From positions 20,127,564 to 20,176,285 of the forward strand of contig CM119264.1 in NCBI GenBank assembly GCA_051294375.1: DNA of 48,722 nucleotides. The letters run 5' to 3'. Each line of letters begins with the position of its first letter. Positions within the stretch are counted from its first letter, which is position 1. Origin of the DNA: Paraspadella gotoi. Lineage: Eukaryota; Animalia; Chaetognatha. Below the pieces are notes generated by a model, which did no database searches, was not told the DNA's origin, and saw nothing but the letters and a program-made list of their open reading frames with translations. Below are positions 4,234-46,121 of the stretch, one piece after another. A program made the position numbers and the translations under genes.

Positions 4234-4275
4234 TTTTTCATTCGTCACTTCCTATTATGTCCTTTCCCCTTTTAC

Positions 4276-4880
4276 CTCAGAGAATCCGACTTCTCGAGGA
4301 AAACCAGACTTTTCTTTCGCTATACTATGCCATCTTGCAAAAGGCTCCCGAGCCGGATTCCAGGTCGAATTTTCGCCAGGTTTATCGATCCCTGAGCAAT
4401 CCGATCGGTTCGAAGATTTAGATTCAAGTTGATGATTGTGGCGTCGTCCTTCCGCTTCGGGATTTGATTGGTCATGCAACCGTCGCCTGCTCACCGCTTC
4501 TTTGAATCTTTGATTAGGCGAGGGGGTCAGTGCGTATATGCCCGCGCCTTCCAGTCTCGAATCTCCGACGATCTCGTGTCTCCGCTGTTTGGGCGAGTTT
4601 CTATTCTTCACTTCGATACCCAATTGCTGTTCGGAACTTTGATGAGGATATTGTGGCTGCGGTGATTGCAAAGTGCTCCGATTAAATTTCTGCCTCATCA
4701 ACGAAGACTCGATTTCCCGCTGATGTTTGGGTATGATATCACAAAATTGTTGCTGTTGATGTATTTTTGAATTAGTTTCATTGAGGGACTGATTTTGTTG
4801 TTGCTCATCTTGTTTGCTCCAAAAAACCGAGGGTCGATCTTTAAGTGCGGGACGTTGACCGAAAGTCGAAGAAAGCGAGG
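4276..4880 (-). CDS. Gene 2 exon 5 (Gln/Ser-rich, probably disordered)
   Basis: Acceptor ctttacctatttttatgtcag phase 1 matches the exon 4 donor; 605 bp open; either donor GAG|gtaaaa at 4276 or read-through to the stop at 4255. Confidence 0.6.
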
Positions 4881-5012
4881 CTGACATAAAAATAGGTAAA
4901 GCAATTAAAAAATCGTTACAAACAATATAAAAATTATCCATTCATTTAAAAAATAAGCGGCTAAATTTTACTTTCGACGACAGCGATCTTTTGAGAAACT
5001 GCTTATTTTTAA

Positions 5013-6522: not shown

Positions 6523-6559
6523 TACCCTAACCCCGGTCGGTGAAAGTAAAGTTAACCCA

Positions 6560-6910
6560 AGTAAACTATCTCAGCCCTGACATTGGACTGGCTTTGGTGG
6601 TTTAAGGCGTCCTTTACAATTACAAGACAATAACATAGCAGGACCCTACAATCATTCAAACAAGGCTCTCTCAGTCTTGTTTATTCACACCCAGAGTACC
6701 CGGCTTCTCTATCAAATGGTCTAAAGTTTTAAAGTATATTTAATTTGTATAAAAGGAACACTCTATGACAACGGGGGAACATTAGTGACCGTGAGGGGAT
6801 TGAACCCGGAACTCAGGGTTGGTGAAGAAGTACTTTGCAGCCCAAGCCAATCGGACAAGCTGAGTTTTACCAAGCTATACGGGAGGCGAATTTAGGATTC
6901 GCCACAACTC
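6560..6910 (-). mobile_element. Degenerate element: leader hairpin + tRNA-like head + family A body with decayed twister
   Basis: Hairpin GGCGAAT/ATTCGCC near 6885-6903, B box GGTTCAATCC near 6800, family A homology about 6567-6716; twister 6567-6629 has GA changed to AA and other lesions. Confidence 0.55.
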
Positions 6911-8953: not shown

Positions 8954-10115
8954 GCGAGGAAAACCTGCTATGTCAATTATCTTTGTAAAGAGTGATGAGG
9001 GCCTTAAACACCAAAGCCTGTCCAAAGTCAGAGGGCAAGCATATGCTATTTATTAATGAAGGATAATTTTTATATTGTGTGTATAAACCAATTCAATAAA
9101 ATCAGCTCCTTGTATTTTGTTATGCATAGTGCGGATAACAATAAGTAATTCCGCACGATCTAATCTTAAGGGAGTGGTCTTTTCATAACAATTGAAACAT
9201 TCTTTGAAATATTTTCCACTTTCAATTGATAGGGAAGGCAGGTACTCTGTGAGAGTGAATAAACAACTGTGAGAGAGTCTTGAGTTGAAAAGCGTTGCAA
9301 GGACCTGCTATGTCATTATCTTGTAAGAAGTGATGGAGGGCCTTTAAACCACCAAAGCCTGTCAAAGTCAGGGGCAAGATTACTTATTTTATTAAATGAA
9401 TGGTACATTTTTAATTGGGTTGTACCATATTTCATAAAATTCAGACTCCTTGTATTTGATGCTATGCGGAGTACAATAATGTATTCCCCCGATCTAATAC
9501 TTAAGGGAGTGGTCTTTTCATACATATTGCAAACATCCATTTTGAATTTTTCCACTTCATTGATAGCGGAAGCCAGTACTCTGGGATGTGAATAAACGAG
9601 CTGTGAGAGAGTAGTCTGATTGAAAGCTTGCAGGGACCATGCTATGTCCATTACTTGTAGAGAGTGATGGAGGCCGTTAAGACCACCAAAGGCCTGTCCA
9701 AATCAGGGCAAGATACGCTTATTTATTAAATGAGATGGATAATTTTTGGTAATATATGGTTGTTAACCAATTTTCATAAAATTCAGCTCCGTTGTCATTT
9801 TGAGATGCTAGTGCGAGGTACATAAGTATTCCGCGATTCTAATACTATAAGGAGTGGTCTTTTCATACAATTGAACACATTCTTTGAAATATTCCATCCA
9901 GTTGATAGAGGAAGCCAGGGTACTTTCTGGTGAGTGAATAAACGAGATCTGTGAGAGAGGCTGATTGAAAGCTTGCAGGGATCCTGCTAGTTGTCATTAT
10001 CTTGTAAGATGTGGAGGCCCTTAACCTACCAAAGCCTGTCAATAGTCAGGGCGACAAGATAGCTTATTTATTAAATGAATGGATGAATTTTTTTATATTG
10101 TTGTTACAATTTCAT
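8954..10115 (+). repeat. Head-to-tail array of ~340-bp units (about 3.4 units, 4 twister motifs), retrozyme-like
   Basis: Twister motifs at 8978-9043, 9317-9381, 9652-9715 and 9998-10061 (spacings 339, 335, 346); each copy has different small indels; the array is absent from the opposite foldback arm, so it is an insertion. Confidence 0.85.
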
Positions 10116-19430: not shown

Positions 19431-19495
19431 CTTATTATAAGGCTTATTATAAGGCTTATTATAAGGCTTATTATAAGGCTTATTATAAGGCTTAT
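19431..19495 (+). repeat. (CTTATTATAAGG)n perfect 12-mer tandem, about 5 copies
   Basis: Directly visible; lies between the family C element and an inverted family A terminus (19494-19515). Confidence 0.9.
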
Positions 19496-19630
19496 GAAAT
19501 TGGTACAACCAATATATTGTGTAATATATATATAATGTCAAAATTTTAAATTTTTTTTTTTTTTAAATTCTGAAAACAGATTCAGATTCCTTGATAAAAG
19601 ATAGAAGAAGATATAAATCTTTTTCAAAAA

Positions 19631-20651
19631 TTATGTCATTAAATAGGTTAAAATTATAAAAAAATATATTTTTAAACCAGAAATTAAAAATCGGCGTCTT
19701 AAATATAGTTTTTTGTATTGTAAAGGAGGTGCTGCTGTAGTTGGTTTTGGAGCCGGGGGAGGTGCGGCAGCAGTGGTTGGAGCAGCAGTTGGATTGATTG
19801 GAGCAGATTCAATTGTCGTACCTCCAAAATTTATTCTTCTGTTCCTTTCTCTTTCCAGTTGTTTGGTAAGTTCCTTGACTGATCTTACCAATTGGCAAAT
19901 CTTCTTTTCCTGTTTCTTTATTTCGACTTCATGATTGATGCAGTAATCTTGTATTTCGGTGATGGCTCTGTCTTGGGTGGATCTTGTCTCGTTGAAGGTC
20001 GTTTCTGCACATTTCTTGTTCCATCTCTTGTCTTCTAAGTTCCATTTCGCGTTCATACTTTCCTTCTTGTTTTTTCTTTTCTTCTTTAATGAGGGCGAGT
20101 TCCTGTTGTTCTCGTTCGAAATTGCGGAACGTTTGGTCGTCCCAAAACGTTTCCTTTGGTTTGGGGATTTCATACTCAGGGCCGGAATCCTCGTCTTCAG
20201 AAACAACATTCGGTTGTGTATCATTGATGGCGTCAAAATATCCATCAATCAATATTTCAGACTCATTTGTAGCATCATGTGTTTGCTTGGCTGCCGTCTC
20301 GGAATCAGCATCATCATTCTCGTCTTGCTCGTTTATTGCATCATTTCTCTCGGGAGGTGGCGCGTCACGGCGTCGTCGTTCGGTGACGTGAGCCATGTTG
20401 ATACTTTCGTCAAGCATCTCGCGTTGAACAGATCCTTTGGGATAGCTATCCTGCAGCATTTTGATCTGGCCAAGTTTTGTGTTCACCAAGAATTCCATCT
20501 CCGTTGCGATGGCGATGGCTTCAGGAGTTCCAGTTTGCAGGTATCGTTTAACTAGTCTACAAAGAGAGCCAACGGCGTCATGTATCCCTTCAGGAGAAAA
20601 ATCATCCATGTTGATTCGCGAAAATTCCTCCTCGAGAGCAGCAAATGTCAT
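19631..20651 (-). pseudogene. Frameshifted acidic/coiled-coil/Pro-Thr-Ala-rich ORF nested in gene 2 intron; possibly a retroelement ORF1/gag-like relic
   Basis: ATG at 20651 opens a 240-aa frame; removing one C near 19980 (GAC AAG ATC C ACC CAA) fuses it to a second coiled-coil and PTAAP-rich frame that degrades into AT-rich DNA near 19720. Confidence 0.5.
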
Positions 20652-21368
20652 CGTTTCGATATGAAATAAAGAATAAAAATTCAATTAAAGAGAGCAAGGG
20701 TAAGTTTGAATCAATCAATCAATCAGTATTAAATAAATTGCAAAGTTACTTAGGCGGAATGTTTAATTCGTAAAATTAAAAAAAATTCCTTTGAGACAAA
20801 ATTCGAATCACTAAGCAAACAAAAGACAATCAATCAACCATGAAAATCATTGAATAATCAATCGGTTCATTTATACTAAATCAGCTAATCGAATCAATAA
20901 ATCAATACATTAATCAATAAAATCAATCGGTCGATTAGCCAATCAATCAATTAATCAATCAATCAATCAACATCGATCAGATTCACCTTTTGGATTGATA
21001 TTTTCCGGTTCAAAGGGTTCTGTTGTCAAGCTTGAAAAACAAATTTAATTCAATCCAAAAATCAATCACAAAAACCAACTCAACTTCCGAAGCGATGGAT
21101 ACTTTCTTACTGTAGAATCTTCAGTAAAAACGTAGTAGGAACTTTGTAAGAAAGTAGTTGACGGTCTCTCTAAAATGTGATCCAGTGAATCTGTATTTTT
21201 CTAGTCTGAGCCTGTCCAAGTAAGAGAGAGAAAGAGAGAGAGGGAAAGAGAGAGAGTGGAGAAAGAGTCAGGTCAGTCCCTGTCCGGTCGATCGGTCAAT
21301 CGGTCGAATGGGTCGGATCTGGCCGTCTCCGTCGGTCTCGGCCTTTTCTCTTCAGTGCTTCACTAGTT

Positions 21369-28875: not shown

Positions 28876-30511
28876 AATTGAATTTTAAAGTTTTGTTATA
28901 ATTTTTCATACAAAATAATGAGAGATTAATCAACGACTTTGTCATTTTTTTCAAATCATTTCTTTATATCAATCATTATCTACTGAAAGAGAGCTTATAT
29001 TTGAACTCACTTTCATAAGCCTACGATTATTCGTTCTCAAGTTATTATTGAAAATAACTCAATTTATTAATTACTACATGAAAGACTTATTCAATTCCTA
29101 TTTAATAAAAAACTATAGAAATGTAACATACAATTGCTTAGCTAAAAAATTAATCTAATTTAAATTTTTTCTTCAACAAATAACTACTATGAAATGTTAA
29201 ATTTTATATATATATTTTTAAATAATTTAACATCAAGCAAGAGCACAATTAGTAATATTATATATCCAAAAAAATCCTCATTTTATGAGCTTTCTTTTGA
29301 GTCTAATCTCAGTTTTCTGTGATAATTCGTTTTAGAGAGAGAGAGAGACAGAGAGGGAGAGAGAGAGATTGAGGGAGAGTTTCCAACAAAGGGCTGAGTA
29401 AAGGACAGTGGCCAGATGAGAGGACAGGTGAAGGTAAGGACAGAGAAAAAGAAGATAATTTTGACATAGTGAAAAGTGAAAGAGAGAGAGAGAAATAATT
29501 ACATTTGACAATGTACAACAAAGATAAAAATTTGGACTAACTTAGAAATAAGCTGAGATTTTCAATTGATAACAAAAGTTAAATAAGCTAGTAAGTAGTA
29601 ATGAAAATTGAAATAGGTGGTGAGGGATAGATAAGGTAAGAGTTTAGTGAAATATATAAGAGAAAAAAGAGCTCAAAATGAGCTGGCACCCCCCGGGCGG
29701 ACAAAGGTGGGACGCTGACGCTGACGATTAATAATAATACTTTGACATTTTATCACTTAAAGAGTTAACTTGCTCTTATTTAGGGATTCCTTTATTTGTT
29801 CAAAAGTTTAACCCTTATTCAGTTTTAGAATTGGAAAAGTGTGTATTTTTATTTATATTAAAATTTAAATATAGCTTCCCATCAAAAAGTTCTTTTAAAA
29901 TCATATGTTTCTTATTGATGAAAGTATTTTTTATATGCATTTTCTTTTCAATATGATTTACTGCAATATGCAAATTAGATTATAGTATTCTATATACTAA
30001 TTTTTATGTTTCTAAAATGTAATTTGCATATTGCAGTAAATTATAATGAGAAAGAAATTCAAACAAAAAAAATTTGATTCCATATGAAGCATGACAATTG
30101 CAAACATCTTAAAGATGAGAAGCCTTATGTAAACTTTTAACTTACTATGATTGCACTCTTTTATAAAAAATCCATCGTAATTCGTAGTGGTATTATATTT
30201 AAAAAAAACAAAATTGTAAGCCCCAGACAAAACTATATAAGAAAAAAGCATGATGCCGACGACGACGTCACAAAGAAGCTGAGCCGAAACCAAATCTAGA
30301 CAGGACGTCTGTCGAGATAAAAATACAAAATTTATTTATCTAATTAGGCATTAATTACGTAAAACTGTACTTAAGGTTATTTTGTCTTTTTGTCTACTTC
30401 AAATTAAAAAAATTCGCTAGTCACCGTAGAAAAATTAAAGATATATTCTCTGTCAAATGCTAACAACTATAACAAGCATAGGTAAAAAATGTTATTGAAC
30501 AGATAATTAGG

Positions 30512-31023
30512 TTAACAGCTATACTTTACATCGACGGCGCAAGCGTTTTGCCCTCCGAGATACAAAGGGCTCGGGAAAAAAGCCAAAACTTCGTCCTGAA
30601 GAGGAGAGAACTTTTGATGTCGAGGAATTGAGCTTTTTTGGTCCGTTTCGGCGTCGTTGGAGAAAGGAAGGAAAAATTTGCGATCGATAGTAGGATCCAC
30701 GGGGGCGTAGATAGTGTGTACGGCCGCTGCAGCAGTAGAAGCGATGTTATAGTTGGTTGCTTGACTTCCGCTGGAATGAGCAATGGTTTCATGACCAGGG
30801 GGCGGCGAGTGACTGACCGAAACTATCTCTTGGCATCCAGCGTTTGCTCGGCTGGTGGCGCTGGCGACGATTTCGGCGCCGGAATTGTCAGTCTCGATTG
30901 GCGAGGCGGAAAAAAAGTTAGACTCCGGCGGCGCAGGAGGAGGCAGTGAAGTTAAACTAAACATCTCCCTCAGCAATGGAGGGATGCTCCATAGACAAGG
31001 GAAAGAGCATAGGGCCGCCACAA
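30512..31023 (-). CDS. Nuclear receptor terminal coding exon: helix 12/AF-2 plus long Ser/Pro-rich F domain
   Basis: Acceptor ttatatcttcttgcag (AG at 31024-31025); phase 1 joins the 45957 donor in frame to give ...INHQ-VVAALCSFPCLWSIPPLLREMFSL...; PPLLREMF fits the AF-2 motif; GC-rich frame open to the stop at 30512. Confidence 0.85.
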
Positions 31024-31039
31024 CTGCAAGAAGATATAA

Positions 31040-31221
31040 TGAAATTGGTACAACCAATATAAAAATTATCCATTCATTTAATAAATTAGCTATCTTGCCC
31101 CTGACTTTGGACAGGCTTTGGTGGTTTAAGGCCTCCATCACTCTTACAAGATAATGACATAGCAGGTCCCTGCAAGCTTTCAATCAAGACTCTCTCACAG
31201 TCTCGTTTATTCACTCCCAGA
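31040..31221 (-). mobile_element. 5'-truncated monomer of the ~340-bp twister repeat (family A)
   Basis: Reverse-complement match to the 8954-10115 unit; same 3' terminus ...ATTGGTTGTACCAATTTCAT; flanked by AGATATAAT (31032-31040) and AGATATATT (31219-31227), a possible TSD. Confidence 0.75.
31091..31153 (-). ncRNA. Type-P5 twister ribozyme motif, family A, intact copy
   Basis: TATCTTGT-AA-GAGT-GA-TGG-AGGCCT-TAA-ACC-ACC-AAA-G-CCTG-T-CCA-AA-GT-CAGG-G-GCAAGATA: P5 TATCTTGT/GCAAGATA, T1 TGG/CCA, T2 AC/GT, P4 CCTG/CAGG, P2 ACC/G(A)GT, conserved GA and U^AA; predicted cut between 31128 and 31127. Confidence 0.85.
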
Positions 31222-31789
31222 TATATTATAGCAACAGCCGGGCATGTGATGCCCATTGCGAAGGGTCATCTCACTGTAAGCTCTGGGGGCATCTGACACT
31301 CAGAGGTACCGCCTGTTAATGGCGTGGTTAGACGGTTACCCGAGGACGGTCTCGCTTTACAAACGCAGAGGTGTGAGGTGTGAGGGGGTGTGAATATACC
31401 GCCACAATATCATATACATTCACAGACAACGAACAAAATAACATTGTGAGGAAATGGGTAAAAATGAGTAAAGAATTAATTAAGAAAGAACTACATAGAG
31501 ATCAAATTAGAGATTCCTTAACCGTTAAAAATTAACCGTTAATAACGGTTAAAATTTTTTTTAACTTAACCGTTAATTTTTGAATTTTAACAGTTAAATT
31601 CGGTTAAATTTTATTTTTTCCAATTTAGATATTTTGGTAAAAAATATTCTGTTTCCTTTAACTTATTCTGTTTTTCGAGAAATTTTTCTTAAAACAAAGT
31701 GAAACGTTCAAATAAGACACGTTTTTTATATAGTTTTTGTATTCATTATTTATTTATTCAGAGGAAAAACAAAGTTTGTTTTTGTTTAC

Positions 31790-32512: not shown

Positions 32513-34779
32513 CCTCGTGTCCGTTCGCGAGTGACACCAAAAAATGCTTACCATTTCCCATTGGATAAATATTTTCTAAATTTTCTTTCCTAATTCTATA
32601 GTAAAGTACTGAACGTTTATTATATTTTAATTTCATAAGATTAATTTGATATTTACTTATGTAAAACAACCTTTCTTTTCTGGTCATCCAATTTCATTTT
32701 CAGTAAAAAACTGAATCTTTTAAAAAAAGAAAATCATAAATTAATTGCTCAATACTCATTAATTATTAAAAATTAATAAAATTCATTTACGCCCTTAAAT
32801 TAAGAATTATCTGAGAATCTTTACGTTATAAAATAATTATTCAAGACAGTCAAGAACATGCTCAGGATAGAATTTTTTTCTAATTGGACAAATTGTATAA
32901 AGAAAACATAAGATTTACAATTAAAAGAATAAATAAAAAATCATTACTGAGAAATTACTTACGATAATTCAGATACGCCATTGATTAGACCATTAATAGG
33001 AATTTCTTATAATGTAAATTTAAAAAAAAATTAAATCAAGAACACGTCTAAATTTTAAAAGTGCCTGAATCTAGATTCAGATTTTCAAAATATGATCAGA
33101 ACCATATTTAATGGAAATTAATTACACAGCAGGTGGATCAAGTATGTTCAAAAGGTTAGTAATAAAAATCGAGAGACTCGAATATGCAAATGAGATTAAT
33201 GCGTCATTGTAAGGTTGAATATAAAGCAAAAAAAAGCATAAACAATTTATTAATTATTATTTTTTAAAAAACAATTAATAAATATGTTTTAATTTGTTTT
33301 GATAGTTCTTTATGGGAATTCTGTATAATAAAAAATATTTTAAAAAACTAATTTATCTAACAATATTAACATAATTATTGGATATAAATATATTTGTATT
33401 ATTTTTTTTTATTTATCTTTATTATGAAATAGTTTTTTTTTAATTTTGAAAAAATATTTAGCAAAAATATAACTTTTTTAATTGGTTCAGGCAGTAGAAT
33501 ACAACAATACTTTATAGTCAGATTCTGAAAATGAATTGGGAAAAGATGATTTTTGATACTTCTTTTTCTGACTAATTTTTTTTATATAGTTTCCTTACTT
33601 ATTTTAATTTGTTTTAGGTTAAAAGTGGTTGACACCTATCCCACTAATATTCTTTGCTGAATTTATTCAGCCAATTTCATATTATAGTCATTGACTCTTT
33701 TTGACGAAACCTAATTTCTTTTTTTACGATTTTTGTATTAATCGACTTTGTCGTCCCATAACTTTTGAACGCTGAGTTCGATTTTTCGAGACTTGAACCA
33801 ATTGCTTCATCTTTCAATAAGTTTTATTTTATATTTCTATATCTTTGTAAAATTCAGCCATCCAATACGGTTTTTTTTATGAGAAAATGTAGCTATTTTT
33901 TTGCGCCTTGAGCCAGAGCAGTTCCTTGCAAGCTTTCAATCAAGACTCTTTTACTCTTTTTCAGTCTCGTTTATTCATTCCTAGAGTATAATTTTGACAT
34001 AATTATATTTGCAAGTACAAATTTTTTTTTTCCAAATATTTTGACTTGCGCTGGAAAGGAAAAAATATGAAGAATCCTTGCTATTAAAGTATTTTAATAT
34101 GATTCAAGTAAACAGTACCAAAATGGTTGTCAGCAAAACAAAAAACTGATTGAACTGGAGCTCTGTCTCAATGGCTTTTTGCCATTGGTTCACTGTCTCA
34201 CTCTCTTTCAAGATTGAGTTACAAAAAACCTTCATTGCAATAGTATTTTTATATGCTTTTTATTGTTAAATATTGTTTTTTTATCCTACATGCTGATAAA
34301 ACTATACATACTAGCTTTTTATTATGATTTTATAATATTTATTTAAATTTTTATATAAGATTAATAAGTTTAATAAGTTTTTATTAATTTAAAGTATTAC
34401 TGTGAAACGTTAATCTCATTTGCATATTAGAGTAACCCGATTTTTATTACGAACCTTTTGGCTTTGTGGACAAAAATTCGTTCTATCTCAAATCTCTTAT
34501 TTTGGTACCAAAGTAATATTCCCAAGGTTTTGTAAAGATATTCCAACCCTTCCTATAGGAAGCTGGCCAGGCTACCTAAAATGGTCTTTTTTCGCCAATT
34601 TTACTGTGTAAGATAAAAAATTAAATATAGAATAGTAAATGAAGTAAACACGAAATGAAACTTATACATAAAAAAGGTCAAGTAGTTCTCCAACTAATGA
34701 TATACTTATGAATTATATTTATTAAATATTTAAAGTATAGTAAAGATTATTTTGGTGTCACTCGCGAACGGACTCGGGG
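32513..34779. mobile_element. Tc1/mariner-like non-autonomous element, ~30-bp TIR, TA TSD
   Basis: TA|CCTCGTGTCCGTTCGCGAGTGACACCAAAA and TTTTGGTGTCACTCGCGAACGGACTCGGGG|TA. Confidence 0.7.
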
Positions 34780-44090: not shown

Positions 44091-45956
44091 AGTATCAAAA
44101 TTTGTCGTCAATCCAGACTTTTCTTATGCAATTGCGACGATCCTATTGCTTTTAAGATTTTTTTATATATTTTATGCCAGTCCCTGGAGGATGATAGTGA
44201 AGTATAAAATTATAAAAATTCCGTCCTCCACTTAATGTCAATATTCATTTGCAAACAATTGTTTTAAAATACCTACAATAGTATCCAAGATATGGTCATA
44301 AACGTCAGCCTTGAAAGGCAAAATTTATCAGAATAAAATTTTCAAGTTTCTTTAAAGATTTCTGACACGCTAGTACTAACTATTTAAAAAAAAAGAGAAA
44401 ACGTTTTGCTGATTTTTCCAAGCATTTACCATAAATGAATTTTACGATGGGTACAACTGAAAGTGTTATGTCTCTAGATGACGAAAAATTTCTATATTAA
44501 AATTTAAGTATTATACCAATAGGATTATGTGAGATACTCCCGCTTTGCCAAAGATTTGTACAGCGTAGTTCAAATCCTTAGTTCTTTAATGGGAAAAAAA
44601 AGTTATTTTCTTGAATAACTTTTGAAAGAAAAGAGGTATGAAGGTGAGTGAGGTATAAAATTAAAGCCCAAATCATGGGACACCTTTCTAAAATAGTTTT
44701 ATTAAATTTTATCTATAATTATTTACACAGCTTTTGTTTAAATTAGAGTTAAAAGTATAACAGTTTTTTGCATTAAAAATTTCAATGAAGACATATGAAT
44801 TTTTTTATTTTCCTTTTGTAAAGACTGAATTACATTTTTATTACCATTTTCTCTACTCCATAAATTTGCTTATATTTTTTAGTTAAAGTAAAAAACAAGC
44901 AAAAATTTATGTAGTAGTTTGATAAAATGTCTTTTTAAATATGAAAAATGATAAATACAAAAATGTTTCCAGCTTGATATAAACAGTCTGGACGTCTACC
45001 TTCTTGTCTGTGAAAGAAAAATCGTCATTTTTCATTATTTTCAACTGCAAAAAAAAAACCTTGACATACTGCTTGTTTATCATAATAAAATTTTAAAAAA
45101 TTACATAGCTCGTGACATATTTGACAACGCAAGACATTGTGTTAAATTGTATTGATAATTTTCTTTTAAATATAACTACCTTTATACAAGGAATTTAATT
45201 CTATTATTTATCATCTATTTTAATAAGAAAAATTCGCGGAATAGCCCCTTTACTGCCATTTCACAAGACATAAAAGGTCATGATTATCGTGTCAGTAGGT
45301 CCAGATTATCTGTACGCTTCCTGCAATCTGCATTCTGAATTTTATTTTTTTCCCTTTCAAATGTATTAAATAAAAAAATTATATGAAAGAATGATCGGCG
45401 TGGATGATGCCATTGGAGAGACTTAGTTACCCCACTTCCCGATCGAATTTTTAAACAAGGTTTTTTTTTCATCTATTCGAGACAACACTAGCTATTGATT
45501 CTATTAATTTTCTATTTCTTACATGTAATTTTCTATTTCTTACATGATATTTTCTGAGTCAGAGAAACGTTTAGCGTGTCAAAAAAATAGGAAAAAAAGA
45601 GTAAAACGTTCTGACAAATTAAAAAAATTATGGAGGAATCTACTACTTACCAAGATTTAACTTTTTACCTAGAATTTTTTAACAACCAGATTGAAAAACA
45701 AATCTTTAAAAAATGTGCTTACCCATTTAACTTGACAATTTTGTTATTTACCGATTTAAAAAAATGATTGAAAACAGAATGTTTATATATAAATAAAAAC
45801 TTATTCTTTTTGTGATTACTGATGACTATAATGTATTTCTCGATAAATTAGCTCTAATACATCAATGATTACGCATTGTTATGGTGAATGACCCTTCCTC
45901 TTAAAGAAAGATAAGAGAGAATGAAAAAAAGAAGGAAATCAAAGAAAGAAAATCAC

Positions 45957-46121
45957 CTTGATGATTGATGCCCTTTACATTTACAAGTATATGTAGGATA
46001 CGAGCAAAGTACTGGTTTCCCTCAGAGAATCCCTGGCGCCTATGGACGTGACGCTGGAGGGCCAGAAGGTGACTTTCTTGCAAGAGCTGAATTGCTTCGA
46101 CACTGTTCAATCCGTTTTGAT
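45957..46121 (-). CDS. Nuclear receptor (NR1-like) ligand-binding-domain exon, helices 9-11
   Basis: 165-bp exon, acceptor ttttttatcgttgcttcag, donor CAAG|gtgatt, phase 1-1. Encodes (D)QNGLNSVEAIQLLQESHLLALQRHVHRRQGFSEGNQYFARILHILVNVKGINHQ, matching the NR LBD pattern DRxGL..VE.LQE..L.AL...F.++L..L..++.+N. Upstream exons not found in the window. Confidence 0.85.

Follow-up and report, generated by a model that had tools for sequence, protein, structure and literature searches.

The intronic hammerhead ribozymes of amniotes are reportedly conserved across amniotes. Another self-cleaving motif on the sense strand of an intron in a regulatory gene, the HDV-like ribozyme of CPEB3, is conserved throughout mammals; 9931 nt separate it from the next exon, and an effect of it has been measured (PMC10919898). 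The metazoan non-LTR retrozymes, by the account in PMC7229834, consist of head-to-tail monomers of ~150-400 nt with a GC content below 45%, each bearing one ribozyme, a type I hammerhead, and the Discussion of that paper proposes that hammerhead retrozyme circles are reverse-transcribed by an autonomous non-LTR element. In Schistosoma, twister T-variants with a weak or missing P1 accompany the Perere-3 (RTE) element, where a coding LINE carries the ribozyme at its 5′ end and the target-site duplication abuts the cut (PMC8501958); truncated twisters at the 5′ ends of RTE elements are also mentioned, as unpublished, in PMC7761336. Cleavage by twisters that lack P1 is called inefficient in the Schistosoma work (PMC8501958), and section 32 of PMC11662667 describes P1 as dispensable or tolerant, with no loss of cleavage from P1 flaws across thousands of twisters.

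In a 48,722-nt stretch of the genome of the chaetognath Paraspadella gotoi (hereafter the window), a predicted twister-like motif lies on the pre-mRNA strand of the last intron of a probable nuclear-receptor gene, within a repeat insert that ends 15 nt before the exon. This insert is probably a young, 5′-truncated copy of a high-copy twister-like repeat, tolerated as a passenger at the splice site. Judged by its sequence, the repeat (family A) likely represents a retrozyme-like family in which a minimal twister replaces the hammerhead. It agrees with the metazoan retrozymes in its head-to-tail arrangement, monomer length, single ribozyme per monomer and GC content, and its twister-like motif sets it outside the family described in PMC7229834. 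Its fixed 3′ terminus, at a distance from the cut, is a feature that the available part of the retrozyme description does not mention, and the possible pairing of palindromes between its copies parallels axolotl HHR_Amex1 (both PMC7229834). As in Perere-3, a twister is combined with non-LTR retroposition, target-site duplications and a weak or missing P1 (PMC8501958), but in family A the ribozyme sits within a short tandem monomer, and insert sequence is present on both sides of the cut. The initial annotation had drawn an analogy with CPEB3, which is weak: the CPEB3 ribozyme is conserved across mammals, whereas the present motif is predicted, belongs to a young, near-majority copy of a mass-amplified repeat and would be cut 104 nt upstream of the exon. 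Neither a tandem retrozyme based on a twister nor a twister completed by a palindrome was found described in the open-access literature searched.

Anatomy of the twister-like motif

On the minus strand, which is the sense strand of the pre-mRNA, positions 31153-31091 can be read as a twister-like motif with its parts in the order of type P5, and this bears out the orientation first proposed for it. The core (31142-31100, minus strand) reads AGU GAUGG AGGCCU U^AA ACC ACC AAAG CCUG UCCAAAGU CAGG and was delimited by Rfam alignment, a structure descriptor and position-by-position reading. The Rfam Twister-P5 model matches the same interval with 25.8 bits (E=0.25 for the window, E=0.0025 for 501 nt); because this lies below the gathering score of 37.6 bits, the motif is classed, on its sequence, as a twister-like minimal variant and not as a canonical Twister-P5 member. 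The structure descriptor, composed after the motif was already known, gave one match in the window, the motif itself, and three matches in 641 dinucleotide shuffles.

The likeness to Twister type P5 (RF02684; PMC5408937) includes the open-P5 order of parts, a U^A cut and the catalytic G and A, together with T1 and its A-A pair, T2, and a P4 with the invariant G-C and U-A pairs. The conserved L1 bases are present as U31128, A31127 and A31126 at the cut, and as G31139, the predicted general base, and A31138 after P2. The predicted cut falls between U31128 and A31127, exactly where it had been placed before, with 104 intron nucleotides between it and exon position 31023 (about 103 by the earlier count). 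The T1 pseudoknot (31137-31135/31108-31110) is formed by U-A, G-C and G-C with the A-A pair, and T2 (31122-31121/31104-31105) by A-U and C-G; a C31120-G31116 pair closes the short P3 junction. All four pairs of P4 (31115-31112/31100-31103) can form, including the invariant G31112-C31103, and L4 has the expected 8 nt. An open-ended P5 stem of 8 bp (31153-31146/31098-31091, minus strand), identified by folding and by the P5-type order of parts, encloses the core. Five pairs differ on both sides from the Rfam consensus with pairing kept, by our reading one each in T1, T2 and P4 and two in P2, and the commonest family variant within P5, at 31098 (3-11% of depth), turns a U-G pair into U-A.

The differences from type P5 (PMC5408937) are a P2 of three positions, a 6-nt palindrome in place of P1, and T2 as AC/GU rather than the conserved GC/GC. 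Relative to the canonical four pairs, P2 has lost one position and retains two Watson-Crick pairs and a C-A mismatch. Alternative registers that would give a four-pair P2 were judged by eye to break T1 or T2 and were rejected. The palindrome AGGCCU (31129-31134, minus strand) replaces stem P1, and two copies could pair through it into a P1 of 6 bp; within one molecule at most one A-U pair can be drawn around GGCC, so that the motif has no closed P1 stem-loop. The computed stability of the intercopy duplex is -9.1 kcal/mol, and forcing the single intramolecular pair costs 3.6 kcal/mol. The description of the motif as an intact twister is therefore apt for the catalytic core only, given the short P2 with its C-A mismatch and the state of P1.

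In secondary-structure prediction for the lone copy, the pairing probability of P5 is 0.99 in a 73-nt context and 0.11-0.93 in four longer ones. The nested active fold is less stable than the minimum-energy fold by 6-7 kcal/mol in 5/5 contexts, with a P2 probability of 0.00 in a model that leaves pseudoknots unscored. Folding z-scores at the motif (-0.87 to 0.49) are uninformative, as expected of a model without pseudoknots.

Conceivably, family A is an animal retrozyme amplified to thousands of copies, and its minimal P5-type twister has a palindromic P1 that becomes whole when adjacent monomers pair; cleavage would then be efficient in tandem transcripts and muted in a single copy. We hold this tentatively and on balance doubt it. 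If it were true, sense copies could sit even 15 nt from a splice acceptor, the fixed 3′ end would mark the point at which a borrowed reverse transcriptase primes on an RNA circle, and a second ribozyme class would be seen to use the same dimer trick. A strict dimer requirement for the copy at 31 kb would in any case go beyond what can be established, P1 being reported as dispensable or tolerant in twisters.

The insert next to the splice acceptor

The insert at 31039-31221 (minus strand) comprises 183 nt, or about half, of a retrozyme-like monomer of ~340 nt, truncated at its 5′ end and with its 3′ terminus at 31039. Between it and the exon remain 15 nt of the host 3′ splice site (31024-31038, minus strand), a sequence ending in CAG, in agreement with the spacing of about 15 nt first noted for the element. 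It is bounded on the plus strand by copies of a target-site duplication, AGATATA at 31032-31038 and its counterpart at 31219-31225, whose length is 4 bp (TATA), or 7 bp if 3 nt common to the element end are counted. The shared 3′ ends of the family, the unrelated flanks of its copies and the AGATATA duplication are marks of target-primed retroposition; the fixed 3′ end, variable 5′ truncation and target-site duplication are those of non-LTR retroposition, and the insert is likely a product of target-primed reverse transcription.

A single base, 31087, departs from the family majority at a 5% threshold (the other base accounts for 96-99.8% of depth), and because of this near-identity the copy is young, as far as its sequence tells. 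The base at 31087 rests on the assembly, and polishing toward the majority is possible for 31065-31192, the region that no flank-anchored contig reaches. The distinction of being the cleanest copy is in part an artefact: three array copies differ from it by 2-8 substitutions but by 15-23 gap positions.

In all five DNA samples (X1, X5, X6, X7 and X8) contigs from the right flank enter the element by 23-29 nt, and in four of the five so do contigs from the left flank, X8 being without cover at 30911-31004; these overlaps are below the 31-nt threshold for bridging. An empty-site joint is absent from the 15+15 joints listed (46 and 159 more were not), among contigs from which rare alleles are lost. 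The window itself may derive from X1 and X5, and X5-X8 come from a single study. The insertion is thus common or fixed in the sampled material, where drift, a narrow sample and selection are indistinguishable. The initial annotation had named a polymorphic recent insertion as the sign of a neutral passenger: recency is borne out by the single difference from the family majority, polymorphism is not, as 5/5 DNA samples show the insertion.

Directly upstream of the insert, 31236-31411 is made up of further high-copy repeat, whose summed depth is high in every DNA run of organism A and which occurs once in the window. Repeats thus account for most of the 390 nt that precede the acceptor. The plus strand at ~31231-31272 bears a resemblance, which we take to be to the 3′ half of an HDV-like ribozyme; a search there for an HDV-like ribozyme gave no Rfam match up to E=10, and folding is unremarkable. 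When the insert is removed by joining 31226-31255 to 31038 (minus strand), the frame of the last exon is seen by eye to stay open into the intron with a hydrophobic start, probably by chance, and an ORF at 31086-31265 is in the same frame as this upstream extension.

The repeat family

Elsewhere in the window the family forms a tandem array at 8963-10115 (plus strand) of 3.3-3.4 monomers with a period of 334-345 nt and 37% GC, rich in indels, with one twister-like motif per monomer and the same 3′ terminus as the copy at 31 kb. Three array copies that were compared are only 77-79% alike among themselves; we infer that their gap pattern reflects uncorrected long-read error around nearly the same sequence and not decay. 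The array shows 14-15% indels while the nearby exon equals short-read contigs exactly, and it is probably an unpolished long-read stretch. Open frames over this indel-laden sequence are only stop-to-stop, of 61-128 aa. An older, diverged copy at 6559-6763 (minus strand) has 24 substitutions in its aligned part and 4 gap positions, and has lost the predicted general-base G. Further pieces lie at 4910-4958, 19494-19516 and 33914-33990. Four of the window copies have a common 3′ end (31039, 10115, 19494 and ~4910), and their 5′ lengths vary.

Several of these pieces have surroundings of their own. The 49-nt 3′-terminal stub at 4910-4958 ends 29 nt short of a possible acceptor AG for a frame of ~209 codons (4255-4881, minus strand) that has no Pfam match. 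At 19431-19516, a 23-nt 3′-terminal stub is followed by 5.4 perfect copies of a 12-nt unit, such as template slippage in priming might give. The piece at 33914-33990, in the same intron and on the same strand as the insert, is without the ribozyme core.

Loose ends of other genomic copies in public contigs cluster at 31037-31042. Contigs that end there with unrelated flanks (agreement 0.39-0.56) number at least 623 in X1, 353 in X5, 170 in X6, 116 in X7 and 188 in X8, so that the family comprises at least hundreds of insertions with one 3′ end. Past 31221, at least 60-178 contigs per DNA run (X1, X5-X8) carry the next sequence of the array, and joints from 31221 back to 31039, which denote further tandem copies, are present in three of the four DNA runs examined for them. 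Family size was judged from these junction counts and not from depth ratios: summed depth over exon depth is 18,000-52,000, or 580-1,700 after division by the worst-case overlap of 31, which is not a copy number. In the substitution table (rows of at least 2%), no change affects the catalytic bases and most entries are C>T and G>A at 2-3%, a resolution too coarse to speak to constraint. None of the runs listed as carrying the sequence is recorded as RNA, and X9 was taken as an RNA run by guess. It contains 1159 family-dominated records, contigs that report neither RNA ends, nor level, nor circularity.

Searches beyond the family itself gave little. A hammerhead found no Rfam match up to E=10 in the array or at the 31 kb copy. 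For metagenome relatives, a degenerate 37-nt pattern had 0 matches, and the 21 loci returned for a 17-nt pattern were rejected as chance matches of 17-21 nt; viral contigs searched for family relatives had 0 matches. Three contigs of organism B (X11; depth 2.5-4.9, element only) and one of organism C (X12; 121 identical nt, depth 4) could stem from contamination or from relatives and were left out of the evidence.

A mechanism that would account for the family starts from transcription of tandem ~340-nt monomers. The minimal twister would cut once per monomer, probably aided by pairing of neighbouring AGGCCU palindromes, and the cut monomers would be ligated into small circles. A borrowed non-LTR reverse transcriptase would then copy the circles back into DNA, always starting 89 nt downstream of the cut; a 3′ end at this distance would imply internal priming, as is expected for a circle or a multimer. 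Short copying could leave stubs like the insert at 31 kb, and repeated rounds of the circle could leave arrays.

An unlikely but serious alternative is that the family does not pass through circles at all, and is a SINE-like or satellite repeat derived from linear read-through RNA in which a twister with a short P2 and no P1 is weak or dead. The score below the Rfam cut-off is consistent with this, as are the fixed 3′ end away from the cut site and the circular folds of three error-laden array monomers, which are only 1.7-1.9 sd below base-shuffled controls; a change in P2 length has also been suggested to disrupt the active site (review, PMC5408937). Against it, the five both-sided pair changes preserve T1, T2, P4 and P2, the tandem monomers have one motif each with retrozyme size and GC, and P2 length was uncorrelated with cleavage in CHiTA (PMC11662667).

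In the retrozyme-like reading it is the family, rather than the locus, that deserves note, an AF-2 switch at the locus being unlikely and a young intronic repeat being ordinary. With a fixed 3′ end and hundreds of junctions, the priming site and the enzyme of animal retrozyme RNA, left open in the part of PMC7229834 cited here, become testable. The many intronic copies likewise offer a natural test for depletion of active ribozymes from the sense strand of introns.

The host gene and splicing at the acceptor

The last exon of the host gene (30476-31023, minus strand) encodes PPLLREMF, which we take to be an AF-2-like motif, and a long C-terminal tail; it ends in a stop at 30512-30514 and a short 3′ UTR. 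The penultimate exon (45957-46119, minus strand) probably corresponds to the region of helices 9-10 of the ligand-binding domain, with a donor GT at 45956. Donor (CAAG|GT, 45957/45956) and acceptor (CAG|31023) join in frame across a GT-AG intron of 14,933 nt, and the joined frame runs for 224 codons to the stop, reading ...INHQ-V-VAALCSFPCLWSIPPLLREMF. The penultimate exon is recognised by Atlas (0.94, 183 shared features), with PF00104 in 10/10 best family matches and on 20-36% of the members of the top two clusters, the best name being EcR-like; against the PDB it finds CAR at E=0.066. The PF00104 profile itself gave no match for the exons in the domain search, protein homologue searches with both exons found none, and the last exon alone, including its first 40 aa, went unrecognised in domain, homology and Atlas searches. 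On sequence grounds the host is likely a nuclear-receptor gene.

Record 18 of X9 (2870 nt) is identical to 30476-31025 over 550 nt and diverges from the genome at the acceptor. Its other 2320 nt lie elsewhere, while DNA contigs instead continue into the element, and its 2-nt overhang fits the AG common to the end of the upstream donor exon. Because the record departs from the genome exactly at the acceptor, we infer that full-length mRNA is spliced at 31023. The record indicates that splicing happens, in a sample that may or may not carry the insertion, and says nothing of its efficiency. X9 is without cover over a unique intron bin (31428-31474), a hole that was given no weight.

Fast intronic ribozymes abort splicing, whereas slow ones or RNase H cuts leave it working (Dye 2006 and Fong 2009, via PMC2995048 and PMC10919898); tethering of exons can allow splicing despite a cut in the intron (PMC2995048), and nascent RNAs cleaved by Drosha are thought to be degraded (PMC6097652). 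In our preferred account, folding of the lone copy is weak, its motif is completed only 67 nt ahead of the exon, and any cut would fall on the upstream side of the branch point. Splicing would mostly win or proceed on tethered pieces, and cut but unspliced RNA would be degraded rather than translated. Because the cut 5′ piece would have no poly(A) and still include 14.8 kb of intron, any effect would be a reduction in mRNA. It is plausible that the effect at the locus ranges from none to somewhat less mRNA and does not include a new AF-2-less isoform.

A stronger effect, in which the lone copy cleaves co-transcriptionally and fast enough to abort a sizeable share of last-intron splicing and so acts as a CPEB3-like dimmer of receptor mRNA, seems to us quite unlikely. 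The catalytic bases and both pseudoknots are intact, flaws in P1 and P2 are tolerated in vitro and ~94% of the natural twisters tested cleave (PMC11662667), the CPEB3 ribozyme tunes its own mRNA (PMC10919898), and the apparent fixation of a young copy, present in 5/5 DNA samples, could mean selection. Yet near-identical insertions number at least in the hundreds, and nothing points to long conservation of this one. Its motif, of which P5 is the last part to be transcribed, is complete only 67 nt before the exon, compared with 9931 nt from cut to exon in CPEB3, competing folds are predicted, and a spliced X9 contig exists.

The insert also bears on the branch point, which had been suggested to lie inside it. 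This is plausible from the sequence: the last 104 nt of the intron contain four YUNAY motifs (at -63, -59, -37 and -17), each of which is in the insert, and the predicted cut is upstream of them all. The candidate at -63 (CUAAU, 31085-31089, minus strand) lies at the 5′ edge of the AG-free zone; the base at 31087 changes CUUAU to CUAAU just past the last upstream AG and makes it the only CURAY among the candidates. It is improbable, in our view, that the insert was kept as a supplier of this branch point with the ribozyme irrelevant. Four of 549 single substitutions would create such a CUAAU-type motif, and a predicted hairpin (31078-31038) would bring the candidate nearer to the AG, but the z-score of that hairpin is -1.08 and the observation is post hoc. 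The base at 31087 is assembly-only and varies in other copies (bases other than the majority one make up 0.25-4% of depth), a YUNAY is present even in the majority sequence, and any repeat inserted here would hold the branch region by position alone.

A ribozyme cut leaves a cyclic-phosphate end without poly(A). The proposal that cleavage gives AF-2-less transcripts, taken as a stable and translated receptor isoform, is very improbable: were the penultimate exon read through into the intron, translation would indeed end 19 codons later, short of the AF-2-like motif, but the 5′ product would retain the 14.8 kb intron and lack poly(A), the intronic polyadenylation that it needs could be served by 42 AATAAA upstream of the predicted cut acting independently of the ribozyme, and the sole long RNA contig among those listed at the gene, in X9, is normally spliced.

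Other features of the window

Two further features lie apart from the family. A near-perfect hairpin at 15643-15716 matches mir-2797 with 53.9 bits (cut-off 74) and could be microRNA-like or an inverted-repeat element. At 19631-20684 (minus strand), overlapping frames of 251 and 205 aa in different reading frames have no Pfam match and possibly represent a frameshifted gene or a mobile element.
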